A DNA stretch of 64,000 bases, from positions 22,948-86,947 of the forward strand of contig JAIORK010000036.1 in assembly GCA_021108215.1 (NCBI GenBank), written 5' to 3'. Below are positions 1-20,686 of this stretch, piece after piece (positions within the stretch are counted from its first letter, which is position 1; each line of letters starts with the position of its first letter). Below the pieces are notes generated by a model, which did not search any database, was not told the origin of the DNA, and saw only the letters and a list, made by a program, of their open reading frames with translations. The stretch is from a bacterium (GTDB taxonomy: Bacteria; Oederibacteriota; JAAXVQ01; JAUVAV01). Made by a program: the position numbers and the translations under genes.

Positions 1-7
1 ATCACTG

Positions 8-2194
8 ATGAAGTATTCTTTTTGGATTGGACCCGTTTTATTCTGCCTCATGCTCATCACGACGCTGCCGCAAACTGTTAGGGCGGTTCCCCAGGACGGT
101 ATGCGACGTTTTGCGGTGGTGGTCGGGGCCAATGACGGCGGTGAATCCCGCGTTCGTCTGCGCTATGCTGTATCCGATGCCCGGACCGTGATGAAACTTT
201 TTCAAAAAATCGGCGGCGTGTTTCCGCTTGATTGCCGGTTTTTGGTTGAACCCAACCGGGAGACCTTGCTCGCTTCCCTTCAATCACTTCAACGCAAGGT
301 TCGCAAAATTCACGGCCGGACCGGAAAAACCGAGATGATTTTTTACTACTCCGGGCATTCGGATGAAGAGTCCGTACTGCTGGGCGGCGAGAAAGTCTAT
401 TATACTGAAATCAAACATGCCATCGAAGCGGTGAATGCTGATGTACGCATTGCCATTTTGGACTCCTGCTCTTCCGGGGCATTCACCCGGATCAAGGGCG
501 GCAAGACCCGTCCGCCATTTTTGCTGGATGATGCCAACGACATGAAGGGTTCCGCATTTTTAACCTCGAGTTCCTCGGACGAGGTTTCCCAGGAATCGGA
601 CCGGCTGCGCAGCTCATTTTTTACTCATTATCTGGTTTCCGGCATGCGTGGTGCCGCGGATATGAGCCAGGATGGCAAGGTCACACTCAACGAAGCTTAT
701 CAGTATGCCTATCACGAAACCCTGATGAATACCGAAAAAACCATGAGCGGTCCGCAGCATCCCAATTATAACATTCAGATGACCGGCACGGGTGACGTCA
801 TCATGACGGATATCCGTCAGAGTTCGGCGATCATGGTGTTTGACAAAAGTATCCAGGGTCGTATCTTTATACGCGACCACGAAGACCGGTTGGTCCTGGA
901 AATGCGCAAATCCGACGGCAAGTCCATGCAGATCGGTCTCGAAGAAGGCGATTACACAATCAGCTACGAAATAAACCGTGCCTTGTATGCGGCCTCGGTC
1001 CATTTGACCCTTGGTCAGGAATTACACGTCGCAAAGGCGCAGTTTGAAAAAGTGATGCGTGAATCAACCGTGGCACGGGGTAACCCGGCAAAAGCGAAAA
1101 CCGCTTATAAAGACCCGGTGCTCTTTCATGCCGGGGATGCTCAAGTAGTCCCCTGGGATTTTATGTTGATGGCTGAACCGAAAGTCTATAAAAATATTTT
1201 GCATCACAATGCGATCGGACTTTTGGGTGTTTCGAGCGGCAAGGTTGACGGTATTTCCCTGGCTGTGGGGCCGAATATTATTCTTGAAAATAGCCGCGGC
1301 GCTCAAATCTCGGCAATCGGCAATGATACCGGTTGGGATATGCAGGGTGCCCAAATTGGCGGCATTTATAATTTTTTAGGTAAAAGATTGCATGGGGTCC
1401 AGGCAGCCGGGATTTTCAACCAACTGGGCGGTGATCTTCATGGCGTCCAGACAGCCGGTATCTTTAGTATTTGCCGGGGCAATGTCCGGGGTTTTCAAAG
1501 TAGCGGCGTTTATAATATGATTGAGGGCCGTGCCAATGCCGGGCAATTTGCCGGGATTTTCAACCTGACCCACGGCCCCTGCCGGGGAATTCAAGCGGCC
1601 GGGATGGTAAATATTGCAACTACTGAGATGGAAGGCGCTCAACTGTCCGGCGGGATCAATATTGTTCATGGAAAATCCCGGGGCGTTCAAATCGGCATTG
1701 TAAATATTGCAGATGAGCAAAACGGAGTCCCTATCGGTTTGGTCAATCTTGCAAAAAACGGCGGTGTGGGACTGACCACCTGGTGGGATAATCAGAGTGG
1801 TTTTAATCTCGGCGCTAAATTCAGAGCAGGACATTTCTATTCAATCATTGCCGGTAATAAAAAATCTGCGATGGATGATTCGGAAAATGCTTGGGGTGGC
1901 GGTTTTTATTATGGAGTTCAGATTCCTATCACACAAAAATATTATGTAGCAGCGGATACAGGCTTTGTTTTTATAAATCATCGCCCAACTGATACCTTCA
2001 CTGATGATGACTTGCAGATGGCCCAACTCCGGGTAATGGCAGGTGCAACCTTTTACCGGCGCCTTTCAGTATTTGGCGGAGTGGGTAGTGCCTATATTTA
2101 TCGCGCAGAAATTGGCTGGGAAAAAGAAGTATCGGAAAGCATTAAAAAAGATATGCGCCCCCTCTATCTGGCCGGTGCTACACTGCACTTTTAG
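8..2194 (+). CDS. Secreted caspase-family (peptidase C14, orthocaspase-like) protein with tandem ~20-aa Gly/Gln repeats and a C-terminal beta-barrel-like tail
   Basis: N-terminal signal peptide (MKYSFWIGPVLFCLMLITTLPQTVRA). His/Cys dyad context typical of caspase fold (YYSGHSDEE ... ILDSCSSGAF). Middle region has ~10 tandem ~20-aa repeats (G.Q.AGI.N...LHGVQ). C-terminus ends LYLAGATLHF with a terminal Phe, consistent with an outer-membrane beta-barrel signature. Confidence 0.6.
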   Translation: MKYSFWIGPVLFCLMLITTLPQTVRAVPQDGMRRFAVVVGANDGGESRVRLRYAVSDARTVMKLFQKIGGVFPLDCRFLVEPNRETLLASLQSLQRKVRKIHGRTGKTEMIFYYSGHSDEESVLLGGEKVYYTEIKHAIEAVNADVRIAILDSCSSGAFTRIKGGKTRPPFLLDDANDMKGSAFLTSSSSDEVSQESDRLRSSFFTHYLVSGMRGAADMSQDGKVTLNEAYQYAYHETLMNTEKTMSGPQHPNYNIQMTGTGDVIMTDIRQSSAIMVFDKSIQGRIFIRDHEDRLVLEMRKSDGKSMQIGLEEGDYTISYEINRALYAASVHLTLGQELHVAKAQFEKVMRESTVARGNPAKAKTAYKDPVLFHAGDAQVVPWDFMLMAEPKVYKNILHHNAIGLLGVSSGKVDGISLAVGPNIILENSRGAQISAIGNDTGWDMQGAQIGGIYNFLGKRLHGVQAAGIFNQLGGDLHGVQTAGIFSICRGNVRGFQSSGVYNMIEGRANAGQFAGIFNLTHGPCRGIQAAGMVNIATTEMEGAQLSGGINIVHGKSRGVQIGIVNIADEQNGVPIGLVNLAKNGGVGLTTWWDNQSGFNLGAKFRAGHFYSIIAGNKKSAMDDSENAWGGGFYYGVQIPITQKYYVAADTGFVFINHRPTDTFTDDDLQMAQLRVMAGATFYRRLSVFGGVGSAYIYRAEIGWEKEVSESIKKDMRPLYLAGATLHF

Positions 2195-2235
2195 GAAAGT
2201 TATATCAGTGACGATGTGTGATTGTCATAGCATGG

Positions 2236-2778
2236 CTATTTCTTAAATAACATTGTTATACTAAATGCAATATTGGGAGGTGTCTCTGTTTTGAATCCCA
2301 ATGCCTGTGCCACCTGTATGGTTTTTTCAAAATCATGTGCGGAAACATGGATTTTGGGCTCTGTAATCAGCAGCCGTCCCCCTGGCTTCAAGTTGCCAAA
2401 AATTTGCTTAAGAAATTCCTGTATATCCGGCACTTCATGCGCCACCCAGAATACATTGGCAAAATCGACTGCTACAGTAATATCGAGACTGTCCTGTCGG
2501 CACTGATGCAATACAATCCGGTCCGCCACCCCAAATTTTTTCGCGCGCTTTTGGGTCATGGACAGCATGGCTGCCTGCATATCCACTGCATGCACATGTC
2601 CCCGGCCCTGTAGGAGCCTGGCCAGCCGCAGGGTGGTAAATCCACCCCCGCAGCCGATATCCAGGACTTCCATGCCCGGTTTGATATAAGGACTGTAAAT
2701 TTTCTCTATATTGTGGATCAGATTGCGCACCGGATTGTCAAAAGTCCAGACAAACCACCAGGGACACACATGCGGCAT
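2236..2778 (-). CDS. Class I SAM-dependent methyltransferase
   Basis: Motif I VLDIGCGGGFTTLRLA and acidic motif II (HAVDM); 180 aa Rossmann-like MTase. Confidence 0.75.
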   Translation of the reverse strand: MPHVCPWWFVWTFDNPVRNLIHNIEKIYSPYIKPGMEVLDIGCGGGFTTLRLARLLQGRGHVHAVDMQAAMLSMTQKRAKKFGVADRIVLHQCRQDSLDITVAVDFANVFWVAHEVPDIQEFLKQIFGNLKPGGRLLITEPKIHVSAHDFEKTIQVAQALGFKTETPPNIAFSITMLFKK

Positions 2779-2878
2779 AAGATTTTCCTTTCAAATCATT
2801 TTTCCGGCCGGGTGTCCAACACCATACCGAGCAACATGCATCGGCTTCCCAAAGCCGCGATATGTTGTTGCCTGCACC

Positions 2879-3139
2879 TCACGACTTTCTTTTACACGTC
2901 GACCCGCCGAACAACGTATACAAGGGACAAAACCCTATAAAACTTGTCATTACAAAGACAACCGCAAACACCATGAGCACAATTCCCAGTGTCCCCTTTA
3001 AAACACCGCCGATAAACAAGCCGGTAATGACCAAAGCAATCACAATACGCAAAATACGATCAAGACTTCCCATATTCAATTTCATACCACACCTCCCGGA
3101 CTGCCTTAATGCTTGGGTAATTTTACAATGCTCTGCCAA
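2879..3139 (-). CDS. Small inner-membrane protein, DUF2892/YgaP-like
   Basis: 86 aa with two TM helices and a GFCPLYTLFGGSTC motif typical of DUF2892; immediately downstream of the MTase on the same strand. Confidence 0.45.
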   Translation of the reverse strand: MAEHCKITQALRQSGRCGMKLNMGSLDRILRIVIALVITGLFIGGVLKGTLGIVLMVFAVVFVMTSFIGFCPLYTLFGGSTCKRKS

Positions 3140-3367
3140 GAGATTCCAGCAATAAATGCTTGTAACCCTTTATGACCGCTGTATCTGTATAATCCTTACA
3201 TGTGCCCTGATTTTTTTTTCAAAATTTAATTCCCCCTCGGCTCACGTCCATTATGTTCGCACCGGCATAACAACTCGATTTATTGCGGATGATGTTTGAT
3301 TTTTAATCTTGTCTCATCCGGGTAAAAAATGCGACAATAAAATATTCGATTTTATTGGAGTGTTTCC

Positions 3368-4213
3368 ATGTTAAAACGTTTTTTTCTTATTTCATTGATA
3401 GCTTTATTTTTGCTGCCGGCGCTTGTCCAGGCCAAAAACCTGGTCCGGATTGGTGAAAACGCGATTGTTACAGTCGAACTGGAGTTACAAGATGTGGTTG
3501 TCATCAATGGCGATGCCGAAATTTCCGGCCGCGTACTGGGCAACGTGATTGTCATTGGCGGCGACATTGTGCTCAATCCCTCAGCGTATGTCAGCGGCGA
3601 TGTGGTCTGTCTGGGCGGCATCCTCAAGAGCAGCACCGCAGCGATCATCAAAGGCTCCAAAGTGGAAATCGGCGGGAAAATCAGCTGGAAATCACTCCCT
3701 TATTTTTCTATCGCAAAGCTTATGTTCCTTAGCTTCTTATATAAAATCTCTACCGCCGTTATCCTGGTACTGCTGTGTGTATTTTTTGTACTGATGTGGC
3801 CCAATCAAATCCGCTATGCCGCGCAAGAGGCTTCCCACGATCTGGTCAAATCCATTCTGGTGGGGATTTTTGCAGTCGCGTTGCTGGTTCCCCTGGGGAT
3901 CGGATTTGCCATTACCTTATTCGGACTCCCCATCGCCTTTGCCATTTTGGTTTTTCTCCTGATTGCCAGCTGGTTTGGCATTGCCAGTATGGCCTATCTG
4001 GTCGGCACAAAAATCTCCAACCGTTTCTCGCCTTTGGTCGCGGTTATTTTTGGCCTGCTCATTCTTAAATTTGTTCATTTCGTCCCCTTCATCGGCTTCA
4101 TCCTTTACTTCATTGCCATTTTGCCCGGTCTGGGCGCGATTCTCCTGACGCGGTTCGGCACCAACCGGCCCTGGATGGGATCCAAAAACGAAAAATCCTC
4201 TAAAAAAAAATAG
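3368..4213 (+). CDS. Bactofilin-like (polymer-forming beta-helical) domain protein with signal peptide and C-terminal 4-TM membrane domain
   Basis: Signal peptide (LLPALVQA). Repetitive G.V.GDVV/GNVIVIGGDIVL pattern resembling the bactofilin beta-helix. C-terminal half is strongly hydrophobic with multiple TM segments. Confidence 0.5.
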   Translation: MLKRFFLISLIALFLLPALVQAKNLVRIGENAIVTVELELQDVVVINGDAEISGRVLGNVIVIGGDIVLNPSAYVSGDVVCLGGILKSSTAAIIKGSKVEIGGKISWKSLPYFSIAKLMFLSFLYKISTAVILVLLCVFFVLMWPNQIRYAAQEASHDLVKSILVGIFAVALLVPLGIGFAITLFGLPIAFAILVFLLIASWFGIASMAYLVGTKISNRFSPLVAVIFGLLILKFVHFVPFIGFILYFIAILPGLGAILLTRFGTNRPWMGSKNEKSSKKK

Positions 4214-4379
4214 GTCCATCACGGCTGTCATTTGCATATCAAAATCCCGGCATGGTTCCTAGACTGTCCCTTGCACAAATTTATTTTAATAACCGGCATT
4301 TCAAGTAACAAATTCTCCACCTCCCGGTGTTTCACCAATAGAAGCAACAATCACCATTTTAAATATAGGAGGCACTATC

Positions 4380-5162
4380 ATGAGAAAAAAACTATCTATT
4401 CTGGCATGGGTCATTCCCCTATTCCTGGCTATGCAGATTCAGGCTGAGACCATGCCAACCGCAGTGGGCACACCAAGTCCTGCAGCAGAACAATCCGTCA
4501 TTCCTGAAACAACACCCACACCTGAGCCCCAACCGGTTGTTTCCAAGCCGGCAATGCTGACTGAGAAAGAAACCGCCATGATTGAAAATCCAGAATCATC
4601 CTACAAAATCAACAGCCTGTTTGAAGGCCGCATCACCTCAAACGGCGGATACGGTACTGCGGGTTATAAACCCACCCGTATCGACGGAGAGACCGGACAC
4701 ATGATCGGCGGCCGGGGTGGCTGGATCATTAACCATTCACTCATGATCGGCGGTGCGGGCTATAACCTGGCCGATTCCCAGATCCAGCGTGAGTTTGACG
4801 GTGAGATGAAGAAGCTCCATTTTGGTTACGGCGGTATTGAGTTGGGGTACACTTTTTTCTCGGATCAGTTGATCCATCTTGTGGTGCACACTTTGTTTGC
4901 CGGTGGCGGTATCGGCACCCTGGACAAAGTTTATGCTGATGAAGACGAAGACGGTAATAAAAAACATACTTGGGAAGGTCCGGTAGATACGGTCTTTGTG
5001 GTCGAACCCATGATCTATGCCGAGCTAAATGTAACCGAATGGTTCCGGGTCTGCCTGGGCGGCGGTTACCGGCATGTAGAAGGCTGTGAGCTCAAGGGCG
5101 TGAGCAATCAAGACCTGAGCGGTGCTTCCGCCGAACTACTCTTCAAATTCGGATATTTTTAA
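4380..5162 (+). CDS. Secreted probable outer-membrane beta-barrel protein with Pro/Thr-rich linker
   Basis: Signal peptide (FLAMQIQA), PT-rich linker, Gly/aromatic-rich alternating pattern, C-terminal FKFGYF with terminal Phe (outer-membrane protein signature). Confidence 0.45.
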   Translation: MRKKLSILAWVIPLFLAMQIQAETMPTAVGTPSPAAEQSVIPETTPTPEPQPVVSKPAMLTEKETAMIENPESSYKINSLFEGRITSNGGYGTAGYKPTRIDGETGHMIGGRGGWIINHSLMIGGAGYNLADSQIQREFDGEMKKLHFGYGGIELGYTFFSDQLIHLVVHTLFAGGGIGTLDKVYADEDEDGNKKHTWEGPVDTVFVVEPMIYAELNVTEWFRVCLGGGYRHVEGCELKGVSNQDLSGASAELLFKFGYF

Positions 5163-5770
5163 TCGTAAAAATCCACAGGCTTACCCGGCATTCGCCGGGC
5201 AAGCTGCCCATTGTATTCGCGCCGGCACGATAAAAAAACAACAACAAGGCCAGGCAGGACATATCCCCGGCTTGGCCTTGTTATATTTCCAGTAAATAGG
5301 CCACCCGCAAGCCGGCACGATAAACATCCGCCCAATGGGATTGCTGTTTGGCTTCAGGTTAATGAAAATCCTGCCAACGGATATTCCGGTGTTTCACATA
5401 ATCATCCCAGACGATCCGCTTGTGCTGAAGTCCGGCTGCCTGAAAAAACATTTCCAATGCAGGTATGGTGAGCAGCGTAAGCATACTTAAGGATTTCCCT
5501 TTGGAATCTTTCGCGCTTTCCTGCAGACAATAATCCCGTTTCTGCGTTTGGGAGCATTATAGCACCAACCCAAACTTTTCTCTGCGTCTGTAAAATGATT
5601 TTTTCATCAGTCTTTCGCCGGCATTCTTTTTTCCGTCCCCGCGTTACCTGTATTCGGCATTTCTATAAAAATGCATTAATGGGTTGATTTTTCTTTGAAA
5701 TATGGTAAAACGTCTATTCTCACGATCTTATTTATCCAAGACACATTCTCAATAGCTGGAGGGCACAAAC

Positions 5771-7702
5771 ATGACAGAACCAACTGTAGAAAAACTTGAA
5801 TTCAAAACTGAGGTCAGCCAACTGCTTGATCTTGTGGTCCATTCCCTTTACTCGCACAAGGATATTTTTCTGCGCGAGCTCATTTCCAATGCCTCGGATG
5901 CGATTGACAAACTCCGTTATCAGGCTGTAACCCAGAGTGATCTTACGGGTGATGATGCTGACTGGAAAATAAAAATCAGCCTGGACAAAGAAAACAACAC
6001 ACTCACCCTTTCCGACAACGGCATCGGCATGAATCATGATGATCTGGTCAATAATCTCGGTACCATTGCCAAATCCGGCACCAAAGAGTTTTTGGCCACC
6101 TTACAGCAAAGCAAGGATAATGTTAATCTCATCGGTCAATTCGGCGTAGGCTTTTATGCCTCCTTCATGGTCGCTGACAAGGTCGAGGTGGTTTCCAAGC
6201 CACCCCAGGACCCGGCGCACCGCTGGGTCTCGGACGGCAAACAGGGCTTTGAGATCACGCCGGATGACAAATCCAAGCGCGGCACGGATATTATCCTTCA
6301 TCTCAATGAAGAAAACCGGACCTATCTGGAAGAATATGAAATCCGCTCTCTGGTTAAAAAATACTCTGATTTTGTCGAGTTCCCGATTTTAATGGATGTG
6401 GAACGTGAGGAAACCCCGCAAGATGCCGAGGGCAAACCGATCGAGAATGCCAAACCAGAGAAAAAAATCATCACCGAGACGCTCAACTCTATGAAAGCAA
6501 TCTGGGCCAAACAAAAAAAAGATGTCACCCCGGAAGAATATCATGAATTTTACCGGCATGTTTCCCATGATTTCACCGATCCTCTAGAAACCATTCATTA
6601 TCACGCTGAGGGAACCATTGAATTCAAAGCCCTCATTTATATTCCCAGTCAGGCACCTTTTGATCTTTTTATGCGCGATTCCCAAAAGGGCATCCAATTA
6701 TATATCAACCGGATTTTTATCATGAGTGATGCCAAAAAACTTATTCCAGCATACCTGCGCTTTCTCAGAGGGGTTGTGGATACCAGTGATCTGCCGCTGA
6801 ATGTCTCGCGCGAAATGATTCAGCAGGATGCCCAGTTGGAAAAAATCAGTAAAAATATTGTCAAGAAAACCCTGGCTACACTCAAAACCATGAAGGATAA
6901 GGATTTTGATAAATATCTGAAATTTTACAAAACCTTCGGCACGGCATTAAAAGAAGGCTTGCACTATGATCATGATAACCGGGAAGCCATTGCCGAACTG
7001 CTGCTTTTTGAGAGCACCAAAACCGAGCCGGGTCAGCTGCGTTCCCTTGATCAGTATTGTTCGGATATGCCGTCTGAACAAACCGCCATCTATTATCATA
7101 CTGCCGAGGACCGGGCATTGGCACTCGCTTCGCCCTATCTGGAAACTTTCCAATCCAAAAATTGGGAAGTCCTGCTCATGTTGGAAGCCATTGATGAAAT
7201 TGTTCTGCCTGATCTTTTTGAATACAAGAAAAAACCGGTCAAACCGATCAATCGCGGGGATGTTGATTTAAGCAGCGAAGAAAAAGAAAAAGCCGAGGCA
7301 GCTCAAAAAAAAGCCAATGAAACCTATAAAGATCTACTCGCTTATATACAGAAAAAACTTGAAAATAATATCAAAGAAGTCCGTTTTTCAAAATTACTCA
7401 AAGACAGCCCGGCCTGCCTGGCATTGGATGATGCCGGCATGACCCGCCAAATGCAGGAACTCTTTAAAGCCATGGGCAAAGAGTCGCCTGAACAAAAAAA
7501 CATTCTGGAACTCAATCCCAATCATAAGGTTGTAGAAACCATGAACACGCTTTTCCAGGAAAACCAAGCCTCAGAAAAATTATCCGACTATGTCTCTTTG
7601 ATCTACGATCAGTCGCTGCTTACCGCCGGGTTCAAGGTCAAAGATCCCCTGGCATTTTCAAAAAGGCTGACACAATTGATGGTGGGACCAACCGCTTCCT
7701 AA
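5771..7702 (+). CDS. htpG: Molecular chaperone HtpG (Hsp90)
   Basis: N-terminal HATPase motif LRELISNASDAIDKLRY, GxGxG (GQFGVGFYS), 643 aa; canonical Hsp90 architecture. Confidence 0.95.
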   Translation: MTEPTVEKLEFKTEVSQLLDLVVHSLYSHKDIFLRELISNASDAIDKLRYQAVTQSDLTGDDADWKIKISLDKENNTLTLSDNGIGMNHDDLVNNLGTIAKSGTKEFLATLQQSKDNVNLIGQFGVGFYASFMVADKVEVVSKPPQDPAHRWVSDGKQGFEITPDDKSKRGTDIILHLNEENRTYLEEYEIRSLVKKYSDFVEFPILMDVEREETPQDAEGKPIENAKPEKKIITETLNSMKAIWAKQKKDVTPEEYHEFYRHVSHDFTDPLETIHYHAEGTIEFKALIYIPSQAPFDLFMRDSQKGIQLYINRIFIMSDAKKLIPAYLRFLRGVVDTSDLPLNVSREMIQQDAQLEKISKNIVKKTLATLKTMKDKDFDKYLKFYKTFGTALKEGLHYDHDNREAIAELLLFESTKTEPGQLRSLDQYCSDMPSEQTAIYYHTAEDRALALASPYLETFQSKNWEVLLMLEAIDEIVLPDLFEYKKKPVKPINRGDVDLSSEEKEKAEAAQKKANETYKDLLAYIQKKLENNIKEVRFSKLLKDSPACLALDDAGMTRQMQELFKAMGKESPEQKNILELNPNHKVVETMNTLFQENQASEKLSDYVSLIYDQSLLTAGFKVKDPLAFSKRLTQLMVGPTAS

Positions 7703-7705
7703 AAA

Positions 7706-7739
7706 ATCGCTTGGGCGGGATTTCCCCGCCCAAGCGATC
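7706..7739. terminator. Hairpin immediately after htpG stop (ATCGCTTGGGCGGG-ATTTC-CCCGCCCAAGCGAT)
   Basis: Perfect 14-bp stem inverted repeat 4 nt after the htpG stop, A-run upstream; lies between convergent htpG and SDR genes. Confidence 0.4.
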
Positions 7740-7864
7740 ACCTTGCCAAAACATCCTGTTCAACATGTAAAGAAATCCCCGCACTCTTGCCCGGCGGACT
7801 TGCCCAGCTTGCCCTGCGTATGCGGGGGCGAATGCCGGGTGCCGGGTCAAAACAAATGACCCTA

Positions 7865-8563
7865 CTAAAATTTCTGTTCCTCAGCCCCGTACCAGGTTTT
7901 GCCGGTCTCGCCAAACGGTTTAGCCAGTAATTCCAGAATCCGAACAGCGCCGTCAACCGGCTCGCCGGGCGCATTGGAACCACCCATATCAGTTTTAAGC
8001 CATCCCGGGTCCAGACTGTTGACCGCCACTTTACCCTGGAGTGCAGTGGCCCACATCATGGTCAATCCGTTCAAAGCGTATTTACTCAAACGATAGCTAA
8101 TCATATCTTTTTCCGTCTGCACCGCTTTTTTGGTTCCGGCACCGGACGAAACATTAATAATCCGGGGTTCCTGACCTTTTTCCAGCCAAGGCAGCAATGT
8201 CCTTATCATCTGCTGAGGACTGTACAAGTTGGTCCACATGGTTTTCTCCATGATTTCCAGGGTATCTTCCTTCGGATGAAGCGTATAGGTCATCACACCG
8301 GCATTATTAATCAGCACATCCAGGCTTCCCCAGTTTTCTTCGACCCAGCTTGCCGCTGCCTGGGCAGCATCAGGATTGCACACGTCGAGGACCAATCCCT
8401 GAAAATCCCCTTTCTCTTCGAGCAAAGCAGCGGTGACTGCCATGCGCTCCTTATCGCGCGAGATCCCCAAAAGGCGGACACCCTTTTCCAATAATAACTT
8501 CGCCGTCTCCCGCCCGATACCACGCGAAACACCGGTTAAAATAATTTTTTTATTTTTGAGCAT
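7865..8563 (-). CDS. Short-chain dehydrogenase/reductase (SDR) family oxidoreductase
   Basis: TGxxxGxG cofactor motif (LTGVSRGIGRE), NNAG, catalytic YxxxK (YRLSKYAL). Confidence 0.85.
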   Translation of the reverse strand: MLKNKKIILTGVSRGIGRETAKLLLEKGVRLLGISRDKERMAVTAALLEEKGDFQGLVLDVCNPDAAQAAASWVEENWGSLDVLINNAGVMTYTLHPKEDTLEIMEKTMWTNLYSPQQMIRTLLPWLEKGQEPRIINVSSGAGTKKAVQTEKDMISYRLSKYALNGLTMMWATALQGKVAVNSLDPGWLKTDMGGSNAPGEPVDGAVRILELLAKPFGETGKTWYGAEEQKF

Positions 8564-14266: not shown

Positions 14267-16906
14267 TTATTTAACAATGCTAACTTTGATAGTCCCCTTC
14301 ACGCTCCCTTGCACAATAACACGCGCCATATAGACACCGGGCGCAACATCTTTGCAGTCCCAGTCCAGGCTTTGGCCCGGACCCTCCGGTAAATTTTCCT
14401 GCAGTACCGCCACGCGCTCACCGATCAAATTATAGAGCATAATCTCAACCTGGGCAGCTTGCTCCAAATGGAGCACAAAGCGCATCTCTGATTTGGCTGG
14501 ATTGGGAAATGCCAACGCCGGCCGGCCGCCCAGGTCGACATTGAGCAAAGGATTGTCCGGTGTCACGGTTGCGGTTGGCGTTACGGTCAAAGTGGGTGAG
14601 ACGGTTTGGGTCAATGTAATAGTTCCGGTCAGGGTAATGGTGGGTGTCACGGTTGCGGTAAAAGTGATGGTCCGGGTAGGTGTCGCGGTTGCGGTCGGCG
14701 GTCCAATCACAACCACATCCGTTGCAAACGAGGATGTATTGTTACTGCTGTCCGTGGCCAAAGCGGAAACCGTCTCTCCGCCAACCAGACCGGACGGCGT
14801 GAGGCTCCAGTTGCCCGAGCCATCGGCCGTGGTCCTGCCGACCAGGGAAATGCTCCCTCCCGGATTTCCGCCCGCTTCAGCCAGGAAAACCTCGATGTAA
14901 TCATTATTCCCCGCGGTTCCGGAAATCAGGGTGCTGGAGGCAGCCGTAATCACAGGCGGTATTTTATCCGTATTGCCGCCCGCGGACAACAGAATCGCAT
15001 CATGGCCTATCGCTGTGATGGTATTGGCAAACAAACCGTTTTGAATTGCATTGGAATTTAAAATACTAATTCCATAATTCATGCCGGTAAAAATATTTCC
15101 CGAACCGGTATGCTGAATACCAAAAAAATTGCCCTGCCCGTTCGAAATACGGACACCGGTACCCATGGTCAATCCAGTGGCCGTGCCGTCTGGCATGCAA
15201 TTAAGCCAGTTCTGGCATATGGTATTGTTGTCCGCTCCGTCATACAGTTCAAATCCGTAGTTTAAACAGTAAATATAGTTGCGGTCTTCAGGCAGCAGTC
15301 CGCCAATCACGTTATCGATCGCGACGCGAAGCTGGAAACCGTTAAAATTCTCGATTACGCTGCTACGGTCAAGACTCAACCCGATATCATTTCCCAGTAT
15401 ATAATTGCCAACCGCAAGTTCCAGAAAAACCGCATTCAAACTATTGCCGGAAATGATATTGCGGTAGATGGGATCCGGACCGCCGATATAATTGTTGGTG
15501 GCATTCGCGTAATATAAGCGGAGGCCGTGATAATTGGGAATCGCGGCATTTCCGGCCAGATTAAGGCCGATAATGTTTCCGATCACAGTATTTCCCTGGC
15601 AGTCGTAAATGAGCACACCCGCGTTTCCCGTACCACTGCTGCCTGAAATCAAATTGCCCCGCATCTGGCCGGCTGACAAATTGGGTCCGCCGACCAGATT
15701 ATTATCACCGGTTATCCATACCCCGCACTGGTCGCTGATGGCTGCCGCGTCACCGGCCCAGTTGGTGCCGATCAAATTGCCGCTTACCGTATTGCCCGAT
15801 CCTTGCAGCCGGATATTGTATTGGCTGCCGGATATCAGATTGCGTTCCTTATATGCTGCATTCAAATGACCGCCGATCGCGAAAGAAAACCCATACAGAT
15901 CAAGACCGTAACTGGAATTATTGGTAATCTGGTTGTTCTGGATAATATAATGATGCGAGGTTGTGGCAGTGTTATAAATGCCGCGGTCATTGGCCGCAAT
16001 GGTATTGCCATAACCGTCTACAGGCAAACCGATCCAGTTGTTATTGGAATAATTGCCGATACCAATCCCGGCAAAGGAGTGGCCCAAAGGTGTGGCCATA
16101 TCACTGCCCAGACCGATCACATTGCCGCAGACACTGTTGCCCGAGGTTGCCGCATAGGTGAAACGCAGACCCGAGTTGCTGTTGCCGGATATCAGGTTGC
16201 CCTCATTGGCATACCAGCTCCCACCGATCATATTATTTTCACATTGATCACCAAACTCCACGCCAACTAAATTAGGCCGGGCCAAAAGCCCGGAGCTGTC
16301 GGTCCCAATATAATTATTCTGGATTTTCATACTGCTGCAGTGACCAACATATATGCCATAATGGGTATTACTGGATATAATGTTGCGGTCACTGATATTG
16401 GGTGTGCCGATCACTGCATTCGTACTGCCCAAAATGTAAAGACCGTCGCGATTTGGCCGGCTTACATCTGTCCAGTCAAGACCGATCCTGCATCCGGTAA
16501 TTGAAATATTGTCGGCATTAACGGAGCGGATTGCCTGATACGCATCCACCAACGCTACATTTCTGAATTGCGTATTATCACTGGTTATGGCAATCAAAAA
16601 CATATACGTATTACTCTCCTGCGCCGGATAGTACCCGATCACCACGTCATTACTCTCCCCATCAATAATTAATTCATTATTAATCCATATTGCGCTGAAA
16701 ACCGTGATGGAATTGGAATTGCCGCTGGCGCCCGGCCCAAAGGTAATGGTATCACCTGCCGTGGCATCCAGAACCGCCTGGCGCAACGTCCCCGCACCGC
16801 TGTCCTCGCGGCTGGTGACTTGAATGGTAGCAGCTTGCGCAAGTGTCGCCATACCGCATAAAATAATAACTGCAATATACCTGACCCCTAAATATCTTTT
16901 CACCAT
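14267..16906 (-). CDS. Secreted right-handed parallel beta-helix repeat protein with Thr-rich linker and T9SS (Por) C-terminal sorting domain
   Basis: Signal peptide (GMATLAQA). Dozens of N.I.GN/NxIxxN beta-helix rungs. TATATPTRTITFTATVTPTITLTGTITL linker. C-terminal FPNPAKSEMRFVL...YNLIGERVAVL...GVYMARV matches the Por secretion tail (T9SS CTD) pattern. Confidence 0.7.
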   Translation of the reverse strand: MVKRYLGVRYIAVIILCGMATLAQAATIQVTSREDSGAGTLRQAVLDATAGDTITFGPGASGNSNSITVFSAIWINNELIIDGESNDVVIGYYPAQESNTYMFLIAITSDNTQFRNVALVDAYQAIRSVNADNISITGCRIGLDWTDVSRPNRDGLYILGSTNAVIGTPNISDRNIISSNTHYGIYVGHCSSMKIQNNYIGTDSSGLLARPNLVGVEFGDQCENNMIGGSWYANEGNLISGNSNSGLRFTYAATSGNSVCGNVIGLGSDMATPLGHSFAGIGIGNYSNNNWIGLPVDGYGNTIAANDRGIYNTATTSHHYIIQNNQITNNSSYGLDLYGFSFAIGGHLNAAYKERNLISGSQYNIRLQGSGNTVSGNLIGTNWAGDAAAISDQCGVWITGDNNLVGGPNLSAGQMRGNLISGSSGTGNAGVLIYDCQGNTVIGNIIGLNLAGNAAIPNYHGLRLYYANATNNYIGGPDPIYRNIISGNSLNAVFLELAVGNYILGNDIGLSLDRSSVIENFNGFQLRVAIDNVIGGLLPEDRNYIYCLNYGFELYDGADNNTICQNWLNCMPDGTATGLTMGTGVRISNGQGNFFGIQHTGSGNIFTGMNYGISILNSNAIQNGLFANTITAIGHDAILLSAGGNTDKIPPVITAASSTLISGTAGNNDYIEVFLAEAGGNPGGSISLVGRTTADGSGNWSLTPSGLVGGETVSALATDSSNNTSSFATDVVVIGPPTATATPTRTITFTATVTPTITLTGTITLTQTVSPTLTVTPTATVTPDNPLLNVDLGGRPALAFPNPAKSEMRFVLHLEQAAQVEIMLYNLIGERVAVLQENLPEGPGQSLDWDCKDVAPGVYMARVIVQGSVKGTIKVSIVK

Positions 16907-17597: not shown

Positions 17598-18320
17598 CTA
17601 ATAGCACTCATAGTACGGTGGCTTTTTGGGTGTTGGATATATTTTAGCCGAATAGTGTATGTTTTTTATCTTGTCACGAAATTTGTTTTGCAAAATAATA
17701 TTATTTCTAATTGCTGAAATATACTTATCCAGCGCTATTACTAAATCAACCTTTAAGGCATTAATTGATATCGGCAACCAATATCCAGCATAGTTATTCA
17801 AATGCGTTATTTCTCCGGCAGAATGAACTTGCACTATTTGGAAGTGTTTAACATCAAGCCTTTTTTCAAATATTATTTTGCCATCATTATCTGCTATTTG
17901 GAAATTGTGGCTGTAACTATTTCGTTCACCGTCTTCATCAGAAAATACCAACCACTTTAATATCGCTTTTTTACTTTCGAGATCTATTAATAGATTTTGT
18001 GGATGAAATCTATGACACAATCCATGTCGATACATGTAATAAAACCATTTAACTTCCTGGTCTTTGTAAATACTTGTGTCAAAATAATTACGAATAAATC
18101 CTAACTCAACATCCTCACCATCTTTCCCGAAGGGTCTTTGACCATGAAGATATTCACTCAATTCCAGCACATAACTAAAAAACATCAATGGAATAGTAAA
18201 CTCTCCTATCCCTGCTTTTAGAAGAGCACCCATTTCTAAGAGGATCGAGTTTTTATAATCTTTATCCAAATATTCGATTATCTGGTCACTGCTAACATTT
18301 TTAAATAATTTCCAAGACAT
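17598..18320 (-). CDS. Hypothetical protein (240 aa), second gene of the uncharacterised two-gene island operon
   Basis: Intact AT-rich ORF 32 nt downstream of the 777-aa gene on the same strand; no recognisable catalytic motifs. Confidence 0.5.
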   Translation of the reverse strand: MSWKLFKNVSSDQIIEYLDKDYKNSILLEMGALLKAGIGEFTIPLMFFSYVLELSEYLHGQRPFGKDGEDVELGFIRNYFDTSIYKDQEVKWFYYMYRHGLCHRFHPQNLLIDLESKKAILKWLVFSDEDGERNSYSHNFQIADNDGKIIFEKRLDVKHFQIVQVHSAGEITHLNNYAGYWLPISINALKVDLVIALDKYISAIRNNIILQNKFRDKIKNIHYSAKIYPTPKKPPYYECY

Positions 18321-18352
18321 ACCTCATCTCCATTTTAGACCACTTATTGATT

Positions 18353-20686
18353 TTATTTAATCGGATGTTTAGAAAGAATTTGTCGTGCTAATTCTTCTCC
18401 GTCATTTGGGCCTGGAAATCCACCTCTTTCCCGTAATCGTTCTTCAAGTTGTTTTTGTCTAAGTAAAATATGTTTTTGTACATTTTTCCATTGTTCTTCT
18501 GTGAAAACCTTCGGTTTTGTTTTAATTTCTTCGTCAACCTTGTTTGCCATATGTGTATTGTTTTTTGCACGCATTACTAATTGAATAGCATAAAAATGTG
18601 CATATATATCACCAATTGCGTAATCATCAGGATTTTTAGAAATTTCGCAATATGATTCCAGGATTGAGCGTATATTTGAAATACATAAGAGTAATACATC
18701 TTGCCACCACTCTCGGGTATAAAATAAAAGGCCTATGTACACCATAGAATCACATGCAATATCAGTCCATTCTTTAAATATGCTCTTCTTTCTATCAAAA
18801 GCAACCCAGTAAAATGACAAAATCCACGTGAATTTATCAACTAATTCTTTCACATCATTTTGGTTAGATCGTAGTGGATTATCTAATATCTGACACACAA
18901 CTTTAGCAATATGCTTAATTAGCTCATTAATCTCCCAAATAAGAAAACTATCTCCAAACTCATTTTTTTCTGCAACATTGCGCAAGTGCCGTGCAATGAT
19001 GTCTGTCATGTCTATTAATTCGTAATATGGATTTGTCGCATCTCGTTCAGGATCTACTTTCGGAAATATAGTTGCAGCCATAGCGAATAAATTCCCGAGT
19101 GAAGTTTGTTCGACAAGACTATATGCCTTTGTAAACGGATGATTCATTGATAGTCTTCCTTGAAGAGTTTCACTAATTATTGCAAAGGGCGCTAAATTTC
19201 CAAGTTTTTGAAAAACTTGGCCAAGTACTTCTTTGAAGTAATAATCTTTATTCCGAAGCATATGGTCAAGGATGATAAAATACTGTTTAATAACTTCTTC
19301 TGCTAATACAGGATTGCGGTTAATATAGAAGTACTGAGCAATTTCTGATATTCCATTTATAACTGGCAAGTGAATGTCTGAGTCATCAACATCCTTCGGA
19401 GTACATTTAATAATTCCAGAAAGCATGCCGCTCGTCTGAAACGGCACCTCATCAAGCCCTTTTGTTTGGGCAATCCTCACGCATGACAACATGTAGTTAA
19501 TTGGTTTCATAGACAATGGTGCAGTGTTCGGCCGGTATTTTCTTGCTCCTAAATTTGCTGTGTGGATAGTAATTTTCTTGTATGCTTCAGAAACACTTAA
19601 AGCTGCGGATTCATCATTTTGTGATATAGCAATACGGCTAATTTCATTTAACATTTCATAGGAACAGCCTGTAACTGCTTCTACATCAGATTGGGAAGTT
19701 AACAGCAATGTATCTGGGCAGGGCAAAATTAGTAAATTTAGCTTTCTTGCAGATAAATAATACATAGTCAAATGAGCAATCGCATACACAGCCGATTTCG
19801 TTAATAGTTTCTCATTTCGAGAAATAGCTTTTACTGCGATCTCAGATAAATCATTAATCCAACTATTGATAGTTTGGGGATAGCCGAACACTTGAGGATA
19901 ATAAATCGTTTCTATATCCTCAATTACCACTCCCTGCTTTTTTTCTTCCGGGAGTAATTTATAATGAAGTCTTGCTGATCGATTAACTGTCTTTTTTATA
20001 CGATCAATTGTTCTCATTGCTTGCTTGAGAGCAAGATTTGTTGAATAAGTTGGATCTAACAGCTTGCATATATGACGATGATACAAGCGTAGCAGATCAA
20101 GACTAAATCCCAGAGTTAATATAGCAACAGCTAATTTCAAGTTTTCTGAAACTCCAGCGAATCCACCCGCAGAAAAAGCAAAGCACGCTATACACAATAT
20201 CGCAAGAGCTACAAACGATGCATTTGTAATTAAGTCTCTCCGATAAAGACGGACAATTGAAGATGACCAAGCTTCTGCTGCACGTTGTATTGGTATAATT
20301 GATAGGGTTAATACAAGTGCCAGAATTGTTCCGTACGTGGCACCAAGTTGAATGAGCATTTTATCTATTGATTGCGTTGTGTTTAATGCTGTTCGCAAAG
20401 GCGGATAACCCAGAATAAATGATGCTATTATAAGGCCAATAATACCTATCATAATCTTGCTTGTTTTCAAAAGCAACCCACGACTAAACGAAGTAATATA
20501 AAACCATAAACGAACAACTTTTATTGTCAAATACGTTTTTATTCGCGTTATTATAGTTTTCAATCCATCACGTAGCGACATAATCATTCGTTTGAAATAT
20601 TTCACTAGTTTTGGCCACCATAGTATTACGTTTGTTGACCATAAATTGCGAATTTTAAAGTATGATTTGTTTTTATTTTGGTTCAT
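18353..20686 (-). CDS. Hypothetical large polytopic membrane protein (777 aa; N-terminal ~4-5 TM helices plus ~550-aa alpha-helical soluble domain)
   Basis: Hydrophobic segments (IGIIGLIIASFILGY, YGTILALVLTLSIIPI, FVALAILCIACFAFSAGGF, LAVAILTLGFSL) followed by a long helical domain. No P-loop, nuclease or protease motifs recognised. AT-rich codon usage distinct from the backbone. Confidence 0.55.
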   Translation of the reverse strand: MNQNKNKSYFKIRNLWSTNVILWWPKLVKYFKRMIMSLRDGLKTIITRIKTYLTIKVVRLWFYITSFSRGLLLKTSKIMIGIIGLIIASFILGYPPLRTALNTTQSIDKMLIQLGATYGTILALVLTLSIIPIQRAAEAWSSSIVRLYRRDLITNASFVALAILCIACFAFSAGGFAGVSENLKLAVAILTLGFSLDLLRLYHRHICKLLDPTYSTNLALKQAMRTIDRIKKTVNRSARLHYKLLPEEKKQGVVIEDIETIYYPQVFGYPQTINSWINDLSEIAVKAISRNEKLLTKSAVYAIAHLTMYYLSARKLNLLILPCPDTLLLTSQSDVEAVTGCSYEMLNEISRIAISQNDESAALSVSEAYKKITIHTANLGARKYRPNTAPLSMKPINYMLSCVRIAQTKGLDEVPFQTSGMLSGIIKCTPKDVDDSDIHLPVINGISEIAQYFYINRNPVLAEEVIKQYFIILDHMLRNKDYYFKEVLGQVFQKLGNLAPFAIISETLQGRLSMNHPFTKAYSLVEQTSLGNLFAMAATIFPKVDPERDATNPYYELIDMTDIIARHLRNVAEKNEFGDSFLIWEINELIKHIAKVVCQILDNPLRSNQNDVKELVDKFTWILSFYWVAFDRKKSIFKEWTDIACDSMVYIGLLFYTREWWQDVLLLCISNIRSILESYCEISKNPDDYAIGDIYAHFYAIQLVMRAKNNTHMANKVDEEIKTKPKVFTEEQWKNVQKHILLRQKQLEERLRERGGFPGPNDGEELARQILSKHPIK

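Follow-up and report, generated by a model that had tools for sequence, protein, structure and literature searches.

A metacaspase-type protein with a predicted export signal, a β-solenoid and an outer-membrane-type barrel, encoded next to an ECF sigma/anti-sigma pair

Architecture of the caspase protein

The 64-kb window (the whole stretch of DNA analyzed here) opens with the last bases of one gene and a second gene for a protein of 728 residues, in which a signal peptide, a C14 caspase domain, a β-sandwich, a flexible linker, a β-solenoid and an eight-stranded barrel follow each other in this order (Table 1). An earlier note, made from the sequence alone, had described a secreted C14 caspase with a His/Cys dyad, repeats and a C-terminus of the outer-membrane barrel type, and this description held when Pfam, 120 homologues and an AlphaFold2 model were consulted. 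Architecture, folds, catalytic residues, operon conservation and conserved motifs of the caspase cassette are shown by these analyses and those described below.

Table 1 Features of the caspase locus. Nucleotide positions refer to the window unless stated otherwise; a slash between residues marks a candidate cleavage point.
Feature	Position	Strand	Remarks
End of upstream anti-sigma gene (last 8 bases)	1-8	+	Stop TGA (6-8) overlaps caspase ATG (8-10) as TGATG
Caspase ORF	8-2194	+	728 aa, ATG start, stop TAG 2192-2194; secreted C14 protease, β-solenoid and outer-membrane barrel
Signal peptide, residues 1-26	8-85	+	Cleavage predicted after V-R-A26; read from sequence; AlphaFold2 helix 4-19
Metacaspase-type caspase domain, residues 33-268	104-811	+	Pfam Peptidase_C14
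Putative acidic S1-pocket residue Asp57	176-178	+	Invariant; aligns to metacaspase position
Catalytic His117	356-358	+	Invariant, 120/120 homologues
Putative acidic S1-pocket residue Asp152	461-463	+	Invariant; aligns to metacaspase position
Catalytic Cys154	467-469	+	Invariant, 120/120 homologues
T160-R-I-K163-G-G loop	485-502	+	Candidate autoprocessing site K163/G164, directly after catalytic Cys; cleavage inferred
β-Sandwich domain, residues 274-349	827-1054	+	AlphaFold2 strands 274-349, pLDDT >90
Flexible linker, residues 350-378	1055-1141	+	Opens with invariant pair R357-G358; pLDDT <50 at 356-370
β-Solenoid stalk, residues 379-585	1142-1762	+	Twelve LA_2272-type repeats, consensus GxQxAGIxNxxxGxxx
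Eight-stranded outer-membrane β-barrel, residues 586-728	1763-2191	+	Ends ...LYLAGATLHF
Possible second promoter for the cassette ECF sigma factor	4305-4331	+	GTAACA-N16-GTGTT, 49 nt upstream of ORF 4380-5162; tentative
260-aa secreted protein	4380-5162	+	Ends ...FKFGYF; weak outer-membrane barrel match, Pfam OMP_b-brl E = 0.0017, below threshold
Anti-sigma ORF on contig L001	1778-2560 (L001)		Caspase ORF starts at 2560 (L001)

The N-terminus, MKYSFWIGPVLFCLMLITTLPQTVRA followed after the predicted cleavage point by VP, has the properties of a typical Sec signal, i.e., a hydrophobic core and V-R-A at positions -3 to -1. This assignment was read from the sequence without a dedicated predictor. 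A hydrophobic N-terminal segment is found in 111 of the 120 caspase homologues.

Peptidase_C14 (PF00656) matches residues 33-229 with an E-value of 1.6e-9 and 38.2 bits, above the gathering score of 21.4, such that the Pfam check named in the earlier note was passed, and the same family is present in all 120 listed homologues. The catalytic motifs read YYSGH117SDEE and DSC154SSGAF, and their SGH and DxCxSG cores align to metacaspase-1 and metacaspase-4. The C14 domain meets the criterion for the caspase-hemoglobinase fold. Ser115 is also invariant and aligned to a metacaspase position, and the positions of Asp57, Ser115 and Asp152 are those that reportedly form the S1 pocket in the TbMCA2 structure. 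The metacaspase criterion of an acidic pocket, formed by the Asp of L-x-G-C-x-N-D together with that of D-x-C-H-S-G, is likewise met. We infer an active metacaspase-type protease with specificity for Arg/Lys. Note that activity, autoprocessing and specificity were not measured and that a basic P1 residue can only be called probable. The score against the NCBIfam model caspase_w_EACC1 (NF047832) remained under the cut-off (61.6 versus 140 bits). The protein differs from metacaspases and orthocaspases of MEROPS family C14B, such as AtMC4, AtMC9, Yca1 and MaOC1 of Microcystis, by its export signal, β-sandwich, solenoid stalk and outer-membrane barrel. The additional claim that most bacterial orthocaspases are cytoplasmic proved poorly founded: a survey from 2012 covered 671 prokaryotic metacaspases, could infer a localization for only 142 and placed most of the latter in the membrane or the extracellular space (PMC3501461). 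Secretion or membrane attachment as such is not rare among metacaspases.

No Pfam match was obtained for the β-sandwich (residues 274-349), and the linker behind it varies in length from 4 to 78 residues among the homologues. The repeats extend from residue 399 to 586 with a period of 16 residues and comprise ten full units plus two shorter ones of 14 residues, which are the last two. The existence of repeats had thus been recognized correctly in the earlier note, while the period of about 20 residues was wrong. A tandem repeat at the DNA level is absent from the repeat region, and the protein repeats are therefore old and diverged. With stacked coils and one sequence repeat per turn, the region fulfills the definition of a β-solenoid. 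The NCBIfam surface repeat LA_2272_repeat (NF047436) scores 31.3 bits against a cut-off of 25, with residues 558-585 as the best stretch; published mentions of LA_2272 and VC2662 are confined to prediction lists and a proteomics hit without phenotype. Matches to the Flavivirus E stem/anchor (Pfam E = 0.0011, below threshold; PDB phmmer E ≥0.035) were rejected as compositional, reflecting Gly-rich repeats.

The C-terminal 143 residues are modeled as a closed barrel of eight antiparallel, amphipathic strands that matches outer-membrane proteins of the OmpA/OprF/NspA/OmpX type, and with this the second check, i.e., that for a C-terminal barrel, was also passed. Since none of the Pfam outer-membrane barrel families (OMP_b-brl, OmpA_membrane or similar) matched the caspase protein at E ≤1, the likeness to OmpA and OmpX is one of fold and not of a named sequence family. 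The C-terminal residue is F in 45 of 120 homologues, and in others F or Y is found 2-4 residues before the end. The combination of a Sec signal and an aromatic-terminal β-signal that characterizes small outer-membrane barrels is present. Classical autotransporter barrels have 12 strands. The criteria for a type Va autotransporter are not met, because there are eight strands instead of 12, the model contains no helical segment before the barrel, which is directly preceded by the solenoid, and PF03797 did not match.

The sigma factor, anti-sigma factor and caspase cassette

The first two genes of the cassette lie just upstream of window position 1 and were therefore invisible to the author of the earlier note. 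They are found on the near-identical contig L001, where positions 2553-7465 match window positions 1-4913 with 3 mismatches. Both on L001 and in an FCPU426 genome the order is sigma factor, 260-aa protein, caspase, with overlapping stop and start codons. In 79 loci, defined as those in which the caspase ORF was called, an anti-sigma-like gene lies on the same strand as the caspase gene in 74 cases and is adjacent to it or overlaps it in nearly all. A sigma factor gene is present in 66 of the 79; in most of these the sigma and anti-sigma genes lie end to end, and in the remainder their longest-ORF calls overlap. The caspase gene is usually the third of a translationally coupled cassette for an ECF sigma factor, a single-pass anti-sigma factor and the caspase (about 74 of 79 loci), and the coupling of the latter two is by overlaps of 1-4 bp. 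The loci span Spirochaetota, Myxococcota, Aminicenantes, FCPU426, Goldbacteria, Fermentibacteria, Eisenbacteria, Bacteriovoracaceae and Proteobacteria, and include the cultured carriers Archangium gephyra and Breznakiella homolactica as well as Treponema primitia. Four metacaspase operons linked to sigma factors are reported, without assignment to this family, for Myxococcus xanthus DK1622. This form of caspase occurs in at least 583 species genomes. That metacaspase genes can form operons with sigma factor genes was already noted in 2012.

The sigma factor reaches 62.4 bits with the ECF model TIGR02937 (cut-off 42.9), and the periplasmic domain of the anti-sigma factor matches DUF4384 in 44 out of 120 members (best E = 3.7e-6). 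With an ECF sigma gene adjoining a gene for a transmembrane anti-sigma factor, the two qualify as an ECF sigma/class I anti-sigma pair. Profile-profile comparison of the anti-sigma and caspase families revealed neither homology nor a shared domain (probability 0.4%), and the β-sandwich of the caspase protein could not be shown by this method to be a DUF4384 domain. Apart from sigma and anti-sigma genes, there are no conserved neighbors within 5 kb, the other large clusters being artefacts of antisense ORFs. None of the genes that come after the caspase gene in the window (methyltransferase, YgaP-like, DUF8173-like) is conserved as a partner, and a second copy of the caspase, sigma or anti-sigma gene is not present in the 64 kb. 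A role of the cassette in phage defence is unsupported, as PADLOC defence-system models did not match any of the three proteins. The proposal of extracytoplasmic proteolytic signaling, made before the upstream genes were known, is strongly supported by the cassette but remains an inference.

A promoter-like motif, GT(G/A)ACA-N16-GTGTT, was detected in 45 of 71 loci, in most of these 16-53 nt upstream of the sigma factor start; on L001 it lies upstream of the sigma gene at positions 1240-1266. The same motif precedes genes for TonB-dependent receptors and ExbB, and in one locus (L071) it resides directly upstream of a caspase gene without a sigma factor gene nearby. The only match in the window, at 4305-4331, closely resembles that at L001:1240-1266; 0.69 matches would be expected by chance in 64 kb. 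Given this promoter-like site, the following ORF (4380-5162) is possibly a member of the regulon, an assignment that we consider tentative.

Topology, candidate cleavage sites and a proposed mechanism

Topology, substrate, cleavage sites, direction of regulation and signal are all inferred. Eight-stranded outer-membrane barrels have both ends in the periplasm, and the 12-rung solenoid would therefore project into this compartment as a stalk, inferred to be about 6 nm long, that bears the linker, the β-sandwich and the protease. Judging from general outer-membrane protein topology and from sister proteins, the protease at the outer membrane most probably faces the periplasm and not the cell exterior. 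A search with solenoid and barrel alone returned matches to 5024 cluster representatives. Of 20 sampled proteins with this anchor module, 18 have STN and/or CarboxypepD_reg-like domains at the N-terminus and one has a caspase domain; the three shortest (408-504 aa) gave no Pfam match. All three STN-type genes that were inspected directly follow a gene for a FecR-type anti-sigma factor, and in both complete contexts among them an ECF sigma gene precedes fecR. Short forms of the anchor module do not all adjoin sigma factors. STN is a periplasmic signaling domain of cell-surface signaling, and its presence on the same anchor supports the periplasmic orientation as well as a role directed at the anti-sigma factor.

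Three conserved basic-Gly pairs deserve attention as putative cleavage sites. In the loop that follows the catalytic cysteine, K163, G164 and G165 are conserved in 120 of 120 homologues, R161 in 116 and T160 in 108, and AlphaFold2 assigns a pLDDT <50 to residues 163-176. At the head of the linker, R357 is conserved in 120 and G358 in 119 of 120 sequences; from conservation and flexible position we infer a candidate site for release of the protease from its anchor between these residues. The third pair, in the RxK118-G motif, lies in the juxtamembrane linker that joins the transmembrane helix of the anti-sigma factor to its periplasmic DUF4384-like domain. K118 is found in 120/120 and 60/60 sequences, G119 in 118/120 and 60/60, and R116 in 103/120 and 58/60. 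The RxKG motifs of both proteins (RxK163-G and RxK118-G) are situated in segments of low pLDDT. Paired proteins share the residue between R and K in 13 of 65 cases (permutation p = 0.004), a result that carries little weight in the absence of a correction for phylogeny.

These findings can be combined into a model in which a periplasmic protease tethered to the outer membrane performs site-1 cleavage of the anti-sigma factor and thereby activates the sigma factor. Following Sec export, the C-terminal barrel would insert into the outer membrane. An unidentified envelope signal would activate the protease, which would mature itself at RxK163/G and possibly leave its anchor by a further cut at R357/G. 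It would then cut the anti-sigma factor at the invariant RxK118/G, between the transmembrane helix and the DUF4384-like domain, and this site-1 cut would let an intramembrane protease finish the process and release the sigma factor. The latter would transcribe its own operon from the GT(G/A)ACA-N16-GTGTT promoter and, in several lineages, also adjacent genes for TonB-dependent receptors and ExbB. The model is inferred and not shown, there is no experiment behind it, and we see as much reason to doubt as to accept it. If the operon were autoregulated and the protease no more than one of its products, co-transcription would be expected just as well. Structural constraints could account for the invariant basic-Gly pairs. 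Furthermore, the site in the anti-sigma factor is only about 12 residues away from the inner membrane in this genome, and an enzyme tethered to the outer membrane may have difficulty reaching it unless released.

Several known systems resemble the one proposed here. One parallel is DdvS/DdvA of Myxococcus xanthus (PMC11506125, PMC6061681), where a periplasmic His-Cys protease with caspase fold is also coupled to an ECF sigma/anti-sigma pair. For DdvA, cleavage of the juxtamembrane linker by the protein's own CHAT domain has been proposed as a step that precedes the action of RseP (PMC11506125), such that in both cases a first cut in a flexible linker beside the transmembrane helix of the anti-sigma factor would be followed by intramembrane proteolysis. 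However, CHAT domain and TPR repeats of DdvA are fused to the anti-sigma factor itself and act within a dimer, while the enzyme studied here is a separate C14 protein anchored to the outer membrane by solenoid and barrel, and its anti-sigma factor carries only a small DUF4384-like domain. In type III-E Craspase (Cas7-11 with Csx29; Csx30-Csx31-RpoE), a caspase-like protease also cuts the linker of a protein that holds an ECF sigma factor: Csx29 cleaves Csx30, thereby acting on the sigma factor, and the C-terminal domain of some Csx30 versions belongs to DUF4384. Craspase works in the cytoplasm and is triggered by RNA, and its CHAT-family protease cuts after Met or Leu, whereas the present system belongs to the envelope, shows no CRISPR link and no PADLOC match, and probably prefers a basic P1 residue. 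FecA/FecR/FecI likewise consists of three genes for an ECF sigma factor, a transmembrane anti-sigma factor and an outer-membrane partner whose periplasmic N-terminal domain contacts the anti-sigma factor. Genes for TonB-dependent uptake belong to the regulon in both systems, as judged here from the promoter motif, and STN is found on the same anchor in the sister family, which is encoded after FecR. Here, on the other hand, the outer-membrane protein is not a 22-stranded TonB-dependent transducer and the contact domain is a protease; Pfam detected neither STN nor Plug in the caspase protein and no FecR in its anti-sigma factor, while STN and FecR are present in the sister family. Finally, DegS, RseA and sigma-E offer the precedent of a dedicated periplasmic site-1 protease that cuts a single-pass anti-sigma factor and licenses intramembrane cleavage, as is proposed here. 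DegS is a serine protease with a PDZ sensor, anchored in the inner membrane and encoded outside the sigma operon, in contrast to a co-transcribed, caspase-fold cysteine protease anchored in the outer membrane.

Alternative explanations and implications

In principle, the protease could be an output of the sigma factor and not its activator. It would then be an enzyme of envelope quality control or processing whose synthesis follows activation of the ECF sigma factor by other means, with substrates in the outer membrane or periplasm, for example components of the co-regulated TonB-dependent uptake systems. This is possible but less likely than the model above. Autoregulation is usual for ECF operons, and the promoter motif sits upstream of this one; in L071 it directly precedes a caspase gene that lacks a nearby sigma gene; and it also precedes genes for TonB-dependent receptors and ExbB. 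On the other hand, an output gene would have no need of the 1-4-bp overlaps that tie the caspase gene to that of the anti-sigma factor in about 74 of 79 loci from different phyla, no other neighbor being conserved, and an output function leaves unexplained both the invariant RxKG in the anti-sigma linker and the occurrence of STN on the same anchor beside FecR in the sister family.

Alternatively, the protein could be a negative regulator, a co-anti-sigma factor similar to RseB, which binds the DUF4384-like domain and shields the anti-sigma factor until a signal dissociates the pair; proteolysis would serve self-maturation only. The tight translational coupling suggests a stoichiometric complex, and a docking role would agree with the frequent fusion of DUF4384 to protease domains that has been described (bioRxiv 10.1101/2022.08.17.504292). 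We nevertheless consider this unlikely, because conservation of the dyad and the S1-pocket residues in 120/120 homologues argues for catalysis on a substrate and because the motif in the anti-sigma factor is of the type seen in the protease's own flexible loop. A surface-exposed, autotransporter-like protease or adhesin, whose barrel exports solenoid and caspase toward external substrates, is very unlikely given the eight strands without a helical plug segment, the solenoid directly before the barrel, the matches to OmpA, OprF, NspA and OmpX, the lack of a Pfam Autotransporter match and the periplasmic STN of the sister proteins, and it would leave the link to the anti-sigma factor unexplained.

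Within the literature searched, we came across no publication that deals with the site-1 mechanism or with the anchor of such metacaspases. Publications connecting ECF sigma or anti-sigma factors with caspases, metacaspases or orthocaspases were limited to DdvA, Craspase and the 2012 survey, and the main text of the ECF re-classification paper does not mention caspases. Bacterial metacaspases are abundant, almost none has a known substrate or role, and discussion has revolved around programmed cell death. In the present case, the gene neighborhood points to the anti-sigma factor as a candidate substrate and supplies a candidate cleavage site and, with the promoter motif, a read-out, and function is thus directly testable in cultured carriers. 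The protease responsible for the first cut is unidentified for most ECF groups, and a cysteine protease with an outer-membrane anchor would represent a novel way of making it.

A bolder reading, toward which we lean slightly less than against it, is that solenoid and eight-stranded barrel constitute a general, hitherto unrecognized outer-membrane device for trans-envelope sigma signaling with interchangeable periplasmic heads. An STN head would address FecR-type anti-sigma factors, and the metacaspase head would be the first site-1 protease tethered to the outer membrane, maturing at RxK/G, detaching at R/G and cutting DUF4384-type anti-sigma factors at RxK/G. The anchor shared with STN-bearing proteins hints at outer-membrane signaling partners distinct from TonB-dependent transducers. 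If this reading were true, bacterial metacaspases would gain a defined signaling function unrelated to cell death across many diderm phyla.

Architecture of the caspase protein

The ORF at window positions 8..2194 (+) encodes a product of 728 residues. As read from the sequence, its N-terminus looks like a Sec signal peptide (MKYSFWIGPVLFCLMLITTLPQTVRA, followed by VP), and a hydrophobic N-terminal segment is present in 111 of the 120 homologues that were aligned (33-54% identity). Residues 33-229 match Peptidase_C14 of Pfam (E=1.6e-9, 38.2 bits versus a gathering score of 21.4). The caspase domain with a His/Cys dyad claimed in the earlier note thus held, with the Pfam match above threshold and both His117 (YYSGHS) and Cys154 (DSCSSG) invariant in the alignment. 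The family is common and is annotated merely as 'caspase family protein'. When the family profile is compared with metacaspases, LRYAVSD57A corresponds to LRGC(I/V)ND, YS115GH to YSGH and D152SCSSG to DSCHSG. Going by the TbMCA2 structure, these Asp/Ser positions reportedly form the lining of the acidic S1 pocket of metacaspases, and a P1 preference for Arg or Lys is therefore expected by inference.

AlphaFold2, run on the alignment of 120 sequences, gave a model (mean pLDDT 89.9) with a beta-solenoid and an eight-stranded barrel behind the caspase domain (Table). The Foldseek results agree with the modelled structure, and the barrel segment, which ends in ...LYLAGATLHF, contains 16% aromatic residues with alternating hydrophobicity. 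All three structural claims of the earlier note, which had described a secreted orthocaspase with tandem repeats and an outer-membrane barrel at its C-terminus, therefore stand. Only the repeat period of about 20 residues failed: the measured period is 16, with the consensus GxQxAGIxNxxxGxxx and ten full units plus two of 14 residues between residues 399 and 586. The repeats reach the cut-off of the NCBIfam model LA_2272_repeat, while no DNA-level repeat was found in this region of the gene.

Features of the caspase protein, the anti-sigma protein and fetched comparison loci (L numbers)
Feature	Position	Basis or conservation
Protease, signal helix	residues 4-19	AlphaFold2 model
Protease, caspase domain	residues 33-268	AlphaFold2 model
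Protease, low-confidence loop directly after catalytic Cys	residues 163-176	AlphaFold2 model
Protease, beta-sandwich	residues 274-349	AlphaFold2 model
Protease, disordered stretch	residues 356-370	AlphaFold2 model
Protease, very regular 7+4-residue strands, period 16	residues 379-585	AlphaFold2, pLDDT ~98
Protease, eight long strands	residues 586-727	AlphaFold2 model
Protease, candidate site T-R-x-K163-G-G	nine residues past catalytic Cys	K, G, G 120/120; R 116/120
Protease, candidate site R357-G358	head of inter-domain linker	R 120/120, G 119/120
Anti-sigma, transmembrane helix	residues ~84-110	model
Anti-sigma, low-confidence stretch	residues 110-116	model
Anti-sigma, Ig-like beta domain	residues 123-257	model
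Anti-sigma, candidate site T-R-x-K118-G	between variable juxtamembrane tether and first strand of periplasmic domain	
Motif before TonB-dependent receptor genes (Plug domain) near cassette	L005:1815-1841, L006:2014-2040, L008:1821-1847, L022:331-357	
Motif before ExbB genes near cassette	L002:10405-10431, L007:8128-8154, L020:4176-4373 (-)	
Sister family (STN and/or CarboxypepD_reg-like + LA_2272-type solenoid + small barrel)	L084:1759-3471, L085:5001-6935, L087:875-2779	

A sigma/anti-sigma/caspase cassette and its promoter motif

The genetic context is not visible from the window alone because the window begins 7 bases 5' of the caspase ORF. A metagenome contig (L001) matches window 1-4913 with 3 mismatches and reaches 2.5 kb further upstream. 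On it, an ECF sigma gene (1297-1788; TIGR02937, 62.4 versus 42.9 bits, and a Sigma70_r2 match) is followed by a gene for a 260-aa protein (1778-2560) and then by the caspase gene, whose ATG overlaps the preceding TGA stop (TGATG, window 6-10). These three genes recur in an FCPU426 genome. We identify the 260-aa protein as an anti-sigma factor, resting on its modelled transmembrane helix and periplasmic domain (pLDDT 85.7), on DUF4384 matches in 44 of 120 family members (best E=3.7e-6) and on the name 'anti-sigma factor' given to a few members by their sources.

Scanning one genome per species revealed at least 583 relatives, and 80 loci were fetched. Of all 79 loci with a called caspase ORF, 74 carry the anti-sigma gene on the same strand, in nearly all cases adjoining or overlapping the caspase ORF, typically by 4 bp. 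The sigma gene is present in 66 of the 79, mostly abutting the anti-sigma gene and otherwise with overlap between the longest-ORF calls. Among the loci that remain, some have too little upstream sequence to judge. Within 5 kb of the cassette, the fetched loci have no further conserved neighbours. Carriers belong to diderm lineages only: Spirochaetota (including Treponema primitia and Breznakiella homolactica), Myxococcota (including Archangium and Corallococcus), Aminicenantes, FCPU426, Goldbacteria, Fermentibacteria, Eisenbacteria, Bacteriovoracaceae and Proteobacteria.

The bipartite motif GT(G/A)ACA-N16-GTGTT precedes the sigma gene in 45 of 71 loci, mostly at a distance of 16-53 nt to its start codon (1240-1266 in L001). 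This promoter-like arrangement, inferred from sequence, fits an autoregulated ECF promoter. Elsewhere in the fetched loci, 33 further sites were present in 934 kb versus about 10 expected at the rate seen on shuffling the window (0.69 per 64 kb). Those examined include four before TonB-dependent receptor genes, three before ExbB genes, three before an unknown family of 370-410 residues and one before the caspase gene of locus L071. The sites before TonB-dependent receptor and ExbB genes suggest control of TonB-dependent uptake by the sigma factor in several lineages. No sigma or anti-sigma gene adjoins the L071 caspase-family gene (5875-8196), and the motif lies directly upstream of it (5672-5698); it follows that the cassette is separable and that its sigma factor can lie elsewhere in the genome.

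The sole window match, GTAACA-N16-GTGTT at 4305-4331 (+), lies 49 nt upstream of ORF 4380-5162 (+), and its -10 flank is almost identical to the one before the sigma gene. The product of this ORF, 260 aa long and secreted, has a Pro-rich linker; its C-terminal half is rich in Gly and terminates in FKFGYF, and its OMP_b-brl match stays below threshold, a weak outer-membrane barrel signature. The gene is a possible regulon member, but one match versus 0.69 expected is suggestive at most.

Some other genes in the window deserve mention. The product of the gene at 3368-4213 (+), a gene not conserved beside the cassette, has 281 aa and includes a signal peptide, a C-terminal half that is hydrophobic and multi-pass, a short weakly bactofilin-like segment (E=0.047) and a weak DUF8173 match in precomputed annotation. 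The region 17598-20686 (-) has a low GC content (0.35-0.36 versus ~0.47 elsewhere) and two ORFs of 240 and 777 aa without Pfam match; it is possibly foreign DNA amid a housekeeping region (MetE, DnaE, GltX, GroEL, HtpG). An 879-aa right-handed beta-helix protein (14267-16906 (-); NosD and Beta_helix matches) scores near threshold for a type IX secretion C-terminal sorting domain (Por_Secre_tail, 26.5 versus 27 bits), a hint that the organism might have a T9SS. In the 1280-aa product of 55549-59391 (-), a Cro/C1-type HTH (residues 107-164) is the only recognisable part, the other ~1100 residues lacking any Pfam match.

The anchor module and candidate cleavage sites

Solenoid and barrel (residues 377-728) match 5024 of 1.84 billion cluster representatives at E<=0.001 and 3098 at E<=1e-10, many of them too short for a caspase domain. 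N-terminal STN and/or CarboxypepD_reg-like domains are present in 18 of 20 sampled proteins and a caspase domain in only one; the three shortest (408-504 aa) have no Pfam match. A FecR-type anti-sigma gene directly precedes the STN/CarboxypepD_reg-type anchor gene in all three inspected cases, and an ECF sigma gene lies ahead of it in the two complete contexts, L084 and L085; the L087 contig stops within the FecR gene. This sister family resembles a cell-surface-signalling partner other than a TonB-dependent transducer. TonB-dependent transducers touch FecR through STN, their signalling domain in the periplasm. Its presence on the sister proteins would therefore place the N-terminal part of anchor-bearing proteins in the periplasm, as predicted for an even-stranded barrel whose termini are periplasmic. 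It also follows from the STN/FecR contexts that evolution has repeatedly used the anchor as the outer-membrane partner of sigma/anti-sigma pairs. This association does not always hold, as one short form has no sigma factor nearby.

Three invariant basic-Gly pairs, two in the protease and one in the anti-sigma factor, each border a flexible segment (Table). Caspases and metacaspases carry an autoprocessing loop at the position of the first; the linker behind the second varies from 4 to 78 residues among homologues. In the anti-sigma factor, K118 is conserved in 120/120 and 60/60 sequences, the Gly in 118/120 and 60/60 and the Arg in 103/120 and 58/60. The pairs would be natural targets for an Arg/Lys-specific protease, cleavage itself being inferred. 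The residue between R and K is the same in both proteins in 13 of 65 paired loci (permutation p=0.004), an agreement of little weight because the test ignores phylogeny.

Proposed site-1 protease mechanism and alternatives

We propose that the caspase protein is tethered to the outer membrane facing the periplasm, that an unknown envelope signal would let the metacaspase-type protease mature by a cut at K163-G, and that it may also detach from its anchor by a cut at R357-G. It would then make the site-1 cut in the co-encoded anti-sigma factor at K118-G, whereupon intramembrane cleavage would free the sigma factor. Structure and context are nearly certain, while substrate and direction of regulation are inferred; as a whole, this is the best-supported reading, one that could as well prove wrong as right. 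The observation of the earlier note is confirmed apart from the repeat period, and its interpretation is supported and considerably sharpened.

Of the alternatives, all of them less likely, the first in rank is that the operon merely yields the protease as an output. A protective, RseB-like role as co-anti-sigma factor is unlikely. A surface autotransporter-like enzyme is least likely of all, given a barrel of only eight strands, no pore helix and relatives bearing STN.

In mechanism, two known systems come closest, DdvA and the type III-E Craspase. The anti-sigma factor DdvA has a CHAT domain of caspase fold fused to it in the periplasm, for which a self-cut in the juxtamembrane linker before RseP action has been proposed (PMC11506125). 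In the Craspase, Csx30 is cut by Csx29 to act on an ECF sigma factor, and some Csx30 forms carry DUF4384. What sets the cassette apart is that its protease is C14, not CHAT, and resides on a separate outer-membrane protein with a solenoid and eight-strand barrel as anchor, together with its DUF4384-type anti-sigma factor. Fec-type cell-surface signalling and DegS/RseA are parallels in logic. A 2012 survey noted sigma-70-family factors in four Myxococcus xanthus metacaspase operons and the same arrangement in Anaeromyxobacter, Haliangium, Sorangium, Ralstonia and Fibrobacter, giving neither mechanism nor anchor description (PMC3501461). We found no description of this outer-membrane caspase/anti-sigma system in the open-access literature searched. 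Now that a candidate substrate and cleavage sites are named, along with a promoter as read-out and hosts in culture, the function of a bacterial metacaspase becomes testable.
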